40,019 bases of DNA from Escherichia phage Evi. The position numbers are program-made. Every line of letters begins with the position of its first letter. Position 1 is the stretch's first letter. Of this stretch, positions 24,001 through 27,000 are shown one piece after another. The DNA is taken from sequence record LR597642; one strand, 5' to 3'.

Positions 24001-27000
24001 CAAACGAATACCGCTAGCATACTCAGGCCAAATAAGCTCCCAATCATGGGGTCGTAGCTCCGCCCTACTTACTTGGCCTTCCGTCGCAGATTCGATCATA
24101 AGGGCGCGGGTTGGAGATATAGCTGCTCGTCCGGACGCCATTTGCGATAAGTAAGATGGCGATACACCAAGTCTGGCCGCGAATTTCTTAGCATCACCAA
24201 CCCTCAATGATTTAATAAACTCTTTTAATGTCATACCTTCCTCGGTTTAGTGTTTTCTTGCGAGTTTAGTGTTTAATAAACCATTAAGTCAAGTATTTGC
24301 TTGTTTAGTGATTACTAAAGATAATTACCACATGCAGAAAAAAGAAATTCGCCGTTTACGTCTCAAGGAGTGGTTTAAAGATAAAACTCTGCCACCCAAA
24401 GAGAAGAGCTACCTATCTCAACTAATGAGTGGGAGGGCCTCGTTTGGAGAAAAGGCTGCCAGAAGAATAGAGCAAACATACGGGATGCCGGAAGGGTATC
24501 TGGATGCGGAATACGCAGAACAACCGGAGATTTCTCCACCACATGCAGGGTTAACGTCTAATCAACTGGAATTATTGCAGATTTTTTCAGCCTTCCCTGA
24601 GGATGAGCAACGCCAGATAATCAGCGAGTTAAAGCAGAAAAAAGAATCAATGGAAGATCTCATAGCGAGATGGATTGCGGCGCAAAAATGCCGCCGCGCC
24701 TAAGTTATAAAACCGGAGGAAACATGAATAGAGCCCTTTCACCAATGGTTTCTGAATTTGAAACCATTGAACAAGAAAACAGTTACAACGAATGGCTGCG
24801 TGCGAAAGTAGCAACGAGCCTTGCAGATCCGCGCCCAGCAATTCCCCATGACGAAGTTGAGCGCAGAATGGCAGAACGCTTTGCTAGAATGCGCAAGGAA
24901 CGGAGCAAGCAGTAAAATGTTACCCGTGTTATGGCTTGAAAGCGCAGATACCGACCTAGATGATATAACCAGTTATATTGCTCGTTTCGACATAGATGCG
25001 GCTGAACGCTTATGGCAGCGATTAAGGGGTTGTGTGCTGCCGTTATCCGAACATCCGTATTTATACCCACCAAGCGACAGAGTACCTGGCTTGCGTGAGA
25101 TTGTGGCCCACCCTAACTATATAATTCTATACCGCGTAACAACATCAAGCGTTGAAGTAGTAAACGTGATCCACGCAAGACGCCAGTTTCCCTAACTTTA
25201 ACTACCAATAGAAACATAACAACCGCAACGACTTTACCAAAAGCGTTGTGTTTGTTACGCCCCACGGTTTAGTTTTTGCTTGACTTAAGTTTAATGTTTA
25301 TTAAACTAAAAATACCAACCCACCCCGCCCCACAGAACGCAGGGCAATACTTCGAGTTACCCGGCAGTGGTCAGGGGTTAAGTAGCCAGCCCGAGGCGTA
25401 AGAACATGACGGCAGGGTTCAACTTTAATAACTATGCAGCAGGTTTTTGTTCCGCTACCCCGGCGTGAAGGGGAAACAGAGGGTTTCTCAGTGGGCGAAG
25501 TCAAACATCAGAATGGAAGGCATCCCGGGATCGGCAAAGAAGCGGCAATGGCGCTTTATATTGACATCAGCGCCATTGCCGGACAGGTAAGAGTTATCAG
25601 AGCGGTAACTAAGCGGTATGCGCCTTTACTTCAGAAAGTCTCTGGTGAGTGCACCGAAGATATTGTCAACGATTTCGTCATCGAACTGCGAGGACTCATC
25701 TTCAGTTACAAGGTGACCACAATTTTTGCAGATGGCTCCCGCGAAACTATCAGAGCCCTGCGGCTTAAAGGATGTGTCAAAGACTTCGCCACCACATTCT
25801 GGGCAAGAAAACTTGATTGTATTCATAACCAATTTCCTCTCGAGTAACAGACCCCTCAGAGGATACCACCTCGCCTGACGTGGTTAAAAGCAGGCAACGC
25901 TAACCACAAGGAGCCGACATGCAGAAACGAGAACCCGTCATCATCGCGCCAGACTATACCGATGATGAACTTTATGAGTGGATGCGCCAGAAAATTAATG
26001 CAGCGCAGGATCTGAAATGGGCCAATGAAGCCAGGGCTAAGCAGGCTGAAAATCTGTCCGCTCTGGAGCAGGATATCACCAATCTGGAAAAAGCAGCGGC
26101 ATTAAGCATTGCCAGAATGATTACATACCCACGTTAATAGCTAACCAACGAGGCTAATAATGGAATTTAAAGATTTACCAAAAGAAATCCAGACAATTGC
26201 TGCAACGACTCTCGGTGATAGTCTGGTGAAAATTGACCCGGCATACACCAAAAAAGAAACCATCGATAATATGGTTCGTAATGTGCGCAATGCTTTTTCT
26301 GGGCTATATGGTTCTGATAATCAAAAGCAGGAAAGCGATGTTAATAAACGGGTAATTTCTGTTTGCGTGAATGGCCATGTTCTTTCATCAATCAAAACAG
26401 AAACGGCGACAGTCTTCGATTGCCTTTGCATTGTACAGAGCCTTGTTGATGCTCTGTTTCGTTCAGTGAATTTAGAAAATGATGCAAATCTGCGAGGGCG
26501 CACAATAGCACATCCATATGCACATACTTTAGGCTCTGTGGATATCAAAGATCCCACAAATCTTTAATGAAATAGTTAACGCGAATTGTACTTGCTCTTT
26601 CAGTTGCTTTCAGAATACGCGTTGAAACTGCTGGCGGTAATTTGGTATTCCATTTATTAAAATCATGCCCGGAAAAGTACTCTTCGAAAATACTTTTAAC
26701 TGCAGACTCGCCTATTGAAATGCTGCTTACCATGCGATTTTGATAAAGGCATTTAGCAATAAGAGTTGATTTTAACATTCACCCTCCTGAGGGTTGGTAA
26801 TTAAGGAGTTCTCCACGGGTGAAGTGGAGTGCGTGCGCCGGACACGGGTGAACATCCGGCACTGACAGTTTACTGAAAGGATATTTCTCTGAAAAGTCAG
26901 AGCATAACGCGAAAGCGCACGGCGAGGTTGCTGGTTCATAGATAGCCTGTCGTTAAATTTTCGTCGACCGTGCGCTTCCGGTTGTGGCACTCCGCGAAAT

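Follow-up and report, generated by a model that had tools for sequence, protein, structure and literature searches.

The 40,019-nucleotide stretch recorded for Escherichia phage Evi (sequence record LR597642; hereafter, the window) is a lambdoid prophage of Escherichia coli whose early-left operon is of the Qin dicF type, and the promoter-proximal part of this operon contains two exchangeable accessory cassettes, each with one backward gene, that is, a minus-strand gene antisense to the operon (Table 1). The backward genes are orf66, which encodes a zinc ribbon protein, and orf77, which encodes a five-helix protein, and each of them has a specific forward partner: orf99 covers orf66 fully, and the C-terminal domain of orf135 overlaps orf77. 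The 77 nucleotides in front of orf66 proved, on sequence comparison, to be homologous to the ral-sieB spacer of phages lambda and P22, which in P22 harbors the sieB promoter and the two 3' hairpins of the antisense RNA sas. On balance, we favor the interpretation that these are prophage accessory cassettes with backward genes in sieB-type slots, silenced by early-left antisense RNA.

The element upstream of the zinc ribbon gene

The two-hairpin element overlaps the start codon and the Shine-Dalgarno (SD) sequence of orf66. The covariance model R1, which was built from 36 leaders in the sas orientation, detected nothing else in the window below an E-value of 0.1 and scored 55.5 bits in lambda and 52.6 bits in P22, in both cases within the ral-sieB spacer. 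In blastn searches, the first 34 nucleotides of the leader were 94-97% identical in Lambda, P22, HK629/630, SfV, VT1-Sakai and many others, and these matches fall between ral, on the minus strand, and sieB, on the plus strand; in P22, the annotated sieB promoter and transcription start site (TSS) lie just downstream of the matched stretch. A small RNA (sRNA) sequencing study from 2026 describes P22 sas as a 127-nucleotide minus-strand RNA, with a printed sequence that extends from the sieB start codon through both hairpins (PMC13397905), and this antisense RNA switches translation within sieB (PMC12197685, PMC7067206). Rfam yielded no family for the element at either threshold.

The same arrangement precedes a broad variety of genes. 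The motif CCACNTCAGGCN(3-4)GTGGTAT, for which the chance expectation in the window is none, is present there once (25863-25883, minus strand) and is found in at least 120 IMG/VR contigs. Among 146 distinct leader-plus-downstream sequences, 139 contain an ATG-started open reading frame (ORF) of at least 30 amino acids within the search window, and the ATG is nearly always located 52-59 nucleotides after the motif start. The ORFs behind the element, in Enterobacterales prophages, comprise at least 45 unrelated families, including several zinc ribbons, 77-amino acid and 63-amino acid proteins, SieB-like membrane proteins and proteins of 147-164 amino acids. In particular, orf66, orf77 and the 63-amino acid gene of the E. 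coli prophage L002 each follow a two-hairpin sequence, the second hairpin of which carries the SD.

Sequence comparison indicates that hairpin 2 covaries strongly. Its arms form 32 distinct complementary pairs, such as TCTCG/CGAGA in lambda and P22, TCCTCT/AGAGGA in the window and TCTTGG/CCAAGA, the commonest, with 596 Watson-Crick, 13 G-T and 9 A-C base pairs altogether. The complement is perfect (6/6) in 71% of the sequences, as opposed to 17% if the arms of different sequences are exchanged. Changes on both sides were counted in 64 cells, with 14.8 in shuffles (0 of 500), and sliding the arms lowers the share of paired cells from 90.5% to 36-60%. The many U-G pairs in the covariation cell count probably stem from a one-column register shift in 7-base-pair helices. 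RNAalifold applied to a MAFFT alignment recovered only the invariant hairpin because the arms of hairpin 2 were out of register, and was replaced by a user-defined structure, model-guided realignment and alignment-free tests. The plus strand of the element folds into two hairpins at -18.3 kcal/mol (z-score -2.2). On the minus strand, a PsieB-type promoter is predicted, with a -35 box TTTTAA (25889-25884) and an extended -10 box TGGTATCCT (25868-25860); the predicted TSS would then fall in the loop of hairpin 2, analogous to the mapped TSS of P22.

The loop of hairpin 1 (GCCUG) is complementary to a conserved CAGGC located 7-10 nucleotides past the hairpin, so that a pseudoknot or an alternative helix is possible, and the minimum free energy structure of the minus strand uses this alternative (window positions 25840-25900; leaders L252-L331). 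Because both segments are invariant, covariation cannot test the pseudoknot.

The leader of orf77 is a variant that shares the canonical two-hairpin architecture and the CCAC/GTGG core. Its minus strand folds at -31.5 kcal/mol (z-score -3.0), and the diverged orf77 orthologs in other genera carry the canonical element (50-89 bits). The Qin prophage of K-12 keeps this variant leader after ydfC without a backward gene (L374 2563-2620, corresponding to 26792-26862 of the window); the remnant consists of hairpin 1 and the 5' arm of hairpin 2 and represents an "empty slot" inside the DicF precursor.

Exchangeable cassettes and cognate partners

Comparison with K-12 delineates the two cassettes. Qin is collinear with the window at 25919-26157 and 26792-27324; the intervening block of 634 base pairs (26158-26791), which contains orf135 and orf77 and is located between ydfC and pre-dicF, is missing from Qin and thus is an insertion relative to K-12. 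The block with orf99 and the zinc ribbon gene (25477-25918) stands where K-12 has ydfA-ydfB, and the preceding segment (25309-25476) is 96% identical to the stretch upstream of ydfA in L002. In the E. coli prophages L002-L004, ydfA and ydfC are followed by yet another cassette at the second slot, which encodes the same protein extended to 201 amino acids, with a different, 63-amino acid gene facing it across a 23-nucleotide overlap.

The forward protein of the second cassette is modular. The N-terminal ~55 residues of orf135 (MEFKDLPKEIQ...) recur before four other kinds of C-terminus, in proteins of 179-212 amino acids, and residues ~62-135 comprise a domain cognate to orf77 (VNG...EANxxGxT.H; hereafter, the partner domain) that is free-standing, as proteins of 77-95 amino acids, in Serratia, Dickeya, Proteus and Photorhabdus. 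The backward protein is conserved as a unit: 77-amino acid orthologs of orf77 are present in at least 8 genera, with 28 invariant columns, and the length is kept at 55-70% identity in Klebsiella, Dickeya, Xenorhabdus, Salmonella, Morganella, Yersinia and Serratia. The five-helix model of orf77 is very confident, with a predicted local distance difference test score (pLDDT) of 97.3, and has no structural neighbor, the BFVD search returning just its own homolog; the AlphaFold2 model of orf135 is unusable (pLDDT 41).

In 19 of the 19 diverged loci with an orf77 homolog, the partner domain runs into the 3' end of orf77. The overlap is 23 nucleotides in 18 of these loci and 26 nucleotides in the remaining one (L012), where the orf77 copy is frameshifted, and it is independent of what precedes the partner domain, be it nothing, the E. 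coli N-terminal module, a CxxC module or a YdfC-like module. The pair holds together at 55-65% identity for orf77 and 32-42% for the partner, with varying flanks and N-terminal fusions; a very distant, 78-amino acid relative of orf77 also faces a distant partner domain, and the 63-amino acid family is likewise paired with a partner domain of its own. The forward proteins are, moreover, fused to one another: a YdfC-like module precedes the partner domain in L091 (37% identity, E-value 1e-9), and in Citrobacter the partner domain runs in frame into orf99. In Proteus, the YdfC homolog is encoded by a separate gene upstream of the partner gene (31% identity, E-value 4e-10).

Among many E. coli loci (L013-L075), orf77 is 99-100% identical to that of the window and faces an orf135 that is merely 84-85% identical; the differences in orf135 cluster at residues ~51-105, which points to recombination or diversifying change within the partner gene.

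A candidate pair of genes on opposite strands

In the first cassette, orf99 encloses the entire orf66 on the opposite strand, and the triplet boundaries of the two frames coincide. Annotations disagree on the strand: RefSeq/PGAP has the minus-strand zinc ribbon, and the GenBank records of PPompW/Stx2a phages have a 118-amino acid plus-strand ORF. The zinc ribbon frame is clearly constrained, to judge from the pattern of substitutions. The orthologs of orf66 in Citrobacter, Klebsiella and Enterobacter keep the length of 66 amino acids and all four Cys ligands at 60-70% identity. Within the overlap, the ratio of nonsynonymous to synonymous substitution rates (dN/dS) is 0.18-0.30 in the orf66 frame compared to 0.41-0.82 in the antisense frame and is lower in the zinc ribbon frame than in the orf99 frame in 15 of 15 pairs; substitutions between genera peak at the third codon positions of orf66 (20, 10 and 27 at positions one to three), as do 20 of the 28 single nucleotide polymorphisms (SNPs) in the overlap within E. 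coli. The protein belongs to NCBIfam family NF047912 (ECs_2282 family putative zinc-binding protein; 57.2 bits with a cut-off of 37, model positions 1-56 of 60), which is a name without an attached function and whose description mentions neither the antisense position nor the leader nor an overlapping orf99.

The status of orf99 is less straightforward, and we consider it to be, somewhat more probably than otherwise, a functional gene. In the 24 codons that extend past the orf66 stop, substitutions move to the third positions of the plus-strand frame, and dN/dS is 0.11-0.37 in 9 of 10 lineage pairs (dS being saturated in the tenth); the two remaining frames of that strand give 0.4-3, with most values close to 1 or higher. 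Across orf66, the orf99 frame is open in six lineages (at least 64 of the 66 codons), always ending a few codons from the orf66 start; under synonymous resampling, the chance of an open frame is 0.08-0.21 per lineage, with a product of ~5e-5 that is an optimistic bound given that the lineages are not fully independent. The start of orf99 is conserved, and in K. michiganensis a stop codon is located two codons upstream of the conserved Met. Distant relatives of orf99 have 99-103 amino acids at 37-40% identity.

The competing explanation, an appreciable possibility although short of a probable one, is that orf99 is a shadow frame of the zinc ribbon gene and 25310-25918 is just an untranslated operon leader with an antisense moron on it. 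Long shadow ORFs arise most readily in the pos1-pos3 antisense frame, which in a single lineage stays open with a chance of 0.08-0.21; behind the same leader, SieB-like genes likewise have long antisense ORFs of junk-like appearance. Furthermore, 23 of the 28 E. coli SNPs in the overlap and 10 of the 16 outside it are nonsynonymous for orf99, so the frame looks neutral within E. coli polymorphism; its SD (AAGAAG) is weak; and PGAP does not call it. These observations are countered by the third-position bias and low dN/dS past the zinc ribbon stop, by the openness of the frame together with its conserved start, and by the in-frame Citrobacter fusion and the distant relatives of similar length. 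Purifying selection, then, is clear in the orf66 frame, and orf99 appears to be constrained outside the overlap and kept open, while looking neutral within E. coli.

Two further zinc ribbon families follow the same leader (76 amino acids, MSKLTTMKVACPDCG...; and 65-67 amino acids, ...LPACPKCG...; L265, L286, L344 and relatives), and both lie wholly inside opposite-strand ORFs of 91-130 amino acids, similarly to orf66 and orf99. As a curiosity, residues ~55-90 of orf99 weakly resemble the B1 domain of Protein L (E-values 0.04 in Pfam and 0.06 in PDB). A synthetic Protein L repeat protein (P0104) scores 1e-9 against orf99 via six stretches, the best of which involves residues 17-48, and the common motif ...VT(T/I).FADG...T...(F/L).G..(K/E).(F/A)... 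comes from reading the sequences by eye rather than from a tool alignment.

Proposed mechanism and alternative explanations

Under the mechanism that we propose, transcription from the promoter at ~25280 would traverse, in this order, orf99, ydfC, orf135, pre-DicF, DicF and kil. In the lysogen, this early-left promoter would be repressed, and the backward genes would be expressed from their own PsieB-like promoter. Once the early-left promoter fires, the transcript, or a sas-like RNA cut from it, would pair with the ribosome-binding region of the backward genes and switch their translation off, and the forward partners would be made at the same time. By analogy with SieB and Esc, the forward partner may neutralize the backward product and so spare the phage self-harm. 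A bolder conjecture, which we offer only tentatively, takes the sas/PsieB element as the hallmark of an exchange system, widespread and so far uncatalogued, within the early-left operons of lambdoid prophages in enterobacteria, with dozens of cassettes that each combine a lysogen-expressed backward effector, an overlapping protective forward early protein and a shared antisense-RNA switch. If so, these prophages would hold a large reservoir of self-immune exclusion or defense modules, and the zinc ribbon locus would be a true case in which the same 200 base pairs encode one protein on each strand, orf99 and the zinc ribbon, with conservation across genera.

Several observations weigh against silencing of sieB-type genes by antisense RNA. 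Searches of Pfam, PHROGs and NCBIfam gave no SieB match for orf66 or orf77, and a conserved internal start of the Esc type was not found, orf66 being devoid of an internal Met and Met16 of orf77 not being conserved. The mapped sieB promoter of P22 is located downstream of hairpin 2, in a 32-nucleotide segment that is absent from the window, so the promoter and TSS given above are predictions. At the orf77 leader (26779-26862), R1 has no match at an E-value of 10 or below, and a promoter consensus scan shows no obvious -10 or -35 box. In hairpin 2, there is no asymmetry between G-U and A-C pairs (13 and 9, respectively), which makes the acting strand unreadable from the sequence and a role at the DNA level possible. 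A PADLOC search with the five proteins yielded nothing credible, that is, two weak matches for the zinc ribbon (E-values 0.002-0.009) and none for the other four. Finally, the co-occurrence of the partners could come from physical linkage alone.

An alternative that we regard as unlikely is that the region is mosaic filler consisting of unrelated hypothetical morons and early genes. The two hairpins would then mark a module boundary at the DNA level, being a linker for recombination or what is left of a terminator, rather than an RNA regulator of the backward genes, and the pairs would travel together only by adjacency. The element indeed is found exactly at cassette junctions, with the Qin remnant of K-12 at the empty site; the nearly pure Watson-Crick pairing of the arms, with no G-U bias, fits a DNA inverted repeat or selection on both strands; and the convergent 3' overlaps of 8-40 nucleotides in nearly all cassettes may reflect tight packing. 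However, in P22 an abundant small RNA, whose role in sieB translation has been demonstrated, includes this very sequence; the fixed distance between the element and the ATG, with the SD in the 3' arm of hairpin 2, implies a translational geometry beyond that of a mere junction; the arms covary while the sequence changes; and orf77 and its partner remain paired at the levels of divergence given above despite changing flanks.

Distinctly less probable is the possibility that the convergent pairs are addiction modules resembling toxin-antitoxin (TA) systems, with orf77 or orf66 as the toxin and the overlapping forward protein as the antitoxin, unrelated to phage exclusion. In favor of this view, the pairing is strict and the partner diverges faster, a genuine PaaA2/ParE system adjoins the operon, and control by antisense RNA recalls the type I systems, of which hok/sok is present in the window. 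Yet no TA family was matched in Pfam, NCBIfam or PADLOC, the proteins look soluble, unlike the small hydrophobic type I toxins, and, with the partners encoded on opposite strands and regulated in opposite ways, a lysogen would contain the "toxin" without its antitoxin. That the zinc ribbon ORF is an artefact and orf99 the sole real gene at 25548-25847 is highly improbable: the GenBank phage records annotate the plus-strand ORF only and orf99 has a PHROGs family, but the substitution pattern of the overlap and the conservation of the Cys ligands, protein length, strong SD and fixed-distance leader all speak for the zinc ribbon gene.

Antisense silencing of backward genes in sieB-type slots, thus, remains the interpretation that we prefer, and it leaves the activities of the proteins themselves aside. 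None of the five matches a functionally characterized family in Pfam, NCBIfam or PHROGs; Pfam gives merely generic zinc ribbon matches below the cut-off, and PDB sequence searches with the 77-amino acid profile and with orf135 were empty. A literature search produced no matches to ECs_2282 or to peptide strings that bear on expression, and the supplements of the Sakai RIBOseq paper, as far as they could be read, contained nothing relevant to these genes.

Genomic context

The features of the region are collected in Table 1. The paaR2-paaA2-parE2 unit and the Cro/YdaS-like gene that it faces seem to constitute the immunity region of the prophage, and the site at 25280-25307, which resembles a promoter in the consensus scan, is the putative early-left operon promoter. 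Megablast detected parts of the region in 4743 of the 5426 complete E. coli genomes, and at least 80% of it is present in 551 of these. A scan of genome contigs yielded three loci only.

Table 1. Features of the accessory region and its surroundings (window positions; aa, amino acids; nt, nucleotides)
Feature	Positions	Strand	Description
Cro/YdaS-like gene	23932-24234	-	Faces the paaR2-paaA2-parE2 unit
paaR2-paaA2-parE2	~24332-25195	+	PaaA2 PF21217, 1.7e-19; ParE PF05016, 4.8e-16
Promoter-like site	25280-25307	+	TTGACT-16-TAAACT, consensus scan; head of early-left (dicB-type) operon, just downstream of paaR2-paaA2-parE2
orf99	25548-25847	+	99 aa; phrog_21318, PHROG match 1.4e-66
orf66	25626-25826	-	Zinc ribbon, 66 aa from ATG; CPEC...CxxCGH, acidic C-terminal tail
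sas-like two-hairpin element	25824-25900	+	77 nt; covariance model R1, 51 bits, E-value 1e-11
ydfC	25919-26137	+	72 aa, predicted coiled coil; 97.5% nucleotide identity to K-12 b1573; phrog_1744
orf135	26160-26567	+	135 aa; phrog_1363 (whole protein), phrog_23433 (residues 55-128)
orf77	26545-26778	-	77 aa, five-helix; convergent with orf135, 23 nt in common (26545-26567)
orf77 variant leader	26779-26862	-	Hairpin CTCCAC-TTCACCC-GTGGAG, then CTCCT...AGGAG overlapping SD
DicF sRNA	27113-27164	+	Rfam RF00039, 76.4 bits; downstream end of accessory block
dicB fragment	27234-27317	+	Fragment according to PGAP note in the 99.5% identical genome L001
kil, Rac-type (FtsZ inhibitor)	27344-27565	+	2e-41; after dicB fragment
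3'-5' exonuclease	27689-30169	+	826 aa; after kil

A sequence-only reading of this DNA had reported four small, low-GC genes between an operator-like promoter and the DicF precursor, all of them unrecognized and two of them, with good ribosome-binding sites, antisense to the operon. This observation is partly confirmed, and its interpretation is partly supported. The four ORFs are present with the sizes and strands that had been proposed, as seen both in an ORF scan and in RefSeq, where PGAP annotates all of them in the 99.5% identical genome L001; the ribosome-binding sites of all four are good (AAGGAG for the 72-amino acid protein, GAGG for the 135-amino acid protein, GAGAGGAA for the zinc ribbon and AGGAGG for the 77-amino acid protein); the region is the accessory part of an early-left operon of the dicB/dicF type; and both minus-strand ORFs are genuine genes antisense to it. 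Low GC content holds for ~26050-26800 (0.38-0.45) and not for 25450-26050 (~0.48-0.50). To call all four genes unrecognized was too strong because two belong to named families, YdfC and NF047912, and the other two match PHROG families, albeit without an attached function; nevertheless, none of the four is functionally characterized. With respect to the suggestion that such regions typically hold host-takeover, superinfection-exclusion and anti-defense genes, the zinc ribbon gene does occupy a sieB-type slot with a homologous control element, but no function of this kind could be assigned to any of the proteins by Pfam, NCBIfam, PHROGs, PADLOC or structure search. The fifth ORF (orf99) and the conserved RNA/promoter element had been overlooked. 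The observation, then, is essentially right but concerns genes that are already annotated and, as first stated, is ordinary; the added weight comes from the link to sieB and sas, the breadth of the element over unrelated genes, the cognate overlapping partners and the candidate dual-coded locus.

Several features of the surroundings deserve mention. The three-gene TA unit of the paaR2-paaA2-parE2 type directly upstream of the early-left promoter includes a regulator with similarity to the C-terminus of DicA. Downstream, DicF is combined with Kil instead of DicB. A sub-threshold STnc100-like match directly 3' of DicF (27166-27351, plus strand; 34 bits with a gathering score of 47, E-value 3e-5) covers the dicB fragment up to the kil start, and a full STnc100 copy is located at 15625-15811 on the minus strand (120 bits). 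The 826-amino acid exonuclease has a long, acidic, Gln/Glu-rich low-complexity center and a CxxC...CxxC pattern near residue 555; its C-terminal domain is of the DEDDh type (PADLOC DEDDh, 2.7e-5). Also on the minus strand are three clustered tRNA genes (16590-16830) and a sok antitoxin RNA (19908-20082; 113 bits), the latter implying a hok/sok module.

Comparison with known systems

The operon resembles dicBF of K-12 Qin in organization, with ydfC, the pre-dicF untranslated region and DicF in the same order at 96-97% identity and a repressor-controlled promoter upstream in both. It differs from Qin in the replacement of ydfA-ydfB, the insertion of the orf135/orf77 cassette, the dicB fragment followed by a Rac-type kil, and the immunity region, which contains paaR2-paaA2-parE2 in the window and dicA in Qin. 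Modularity at the promoter-proximal end of the DicF operon has consequences for the production of DicF precursors in pathogenic E. coli.

The resemblance to the sieB-esc-sas system of P22 (sieB in lambda) involves a gene that runs opposite to the early-left operon, with the immunity region on one side and the kil/recombination genes on the other; a homologous two-hairpin element immediately upstream of it, in front of orf66 in the window, with P22 sas covering the ribosome-binding region of sieB; and an adjoining early-left context of restriction-alleviation, kil and recombination-type genes. The differences are equally clear. The zinc ribbon and five-helix proteins are unrelated to SieB and lack membrane segments, a separate forward-strand ORF overlaps each backward gene in place of the internal in-frame Esc start, and the leader is 32 nucleotides shorter than that of P22, without the mapped promoter segment. 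Until now, sieB and sas have been regarded as peculiar to P22 and lambda, and our literature search, the limited coverage of which does not amount to proof of novelty, turned up no description of the element generalized to many genes. If one regulatory cassette serves dozens of unrelated genes, the 77-nucleotide covariance model becomes a handle for harvesting prophage-expressed accessory genes that annotation pipelines miss or call on the wrong strand, and the same handle would open their cognate forward partners to testing as exclusion/escape pairs.

The control proposed here also has elements in common with the type I hok/sok systems, where a structured cis-antisense RNA covers the translation initiation region of a gene on a prophage or plasmid and structure is possible on both strands. 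It departs from hok/sok in that the target proteins do not belong to the small membrane toxins, a mok-like leader ORF is absent, and the source of the antisense RNA would be an operon under repression instead of a constitutive promoter.

The orf99/orf66 locus, for which we found no RIBOseq evidence in the literature search, can be compared to the antisense overlapping protein genes that have been described in enterohemorrhagic E. coli, such as ano, laoB and pop (PMC5960689, PMC5810103, PMC7103648). Full antisense embedding is common to these cases and the present one, as is evidence of constraint on both genes, which for orf99 is mixed. In orf99/orf66, however, the embedded gene is the better supported of the two, and the pair is conserved across genera and resides in a mobile cassette. 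As a candidate for conserved genes that overlap in antisense, the locus is a tractable one.

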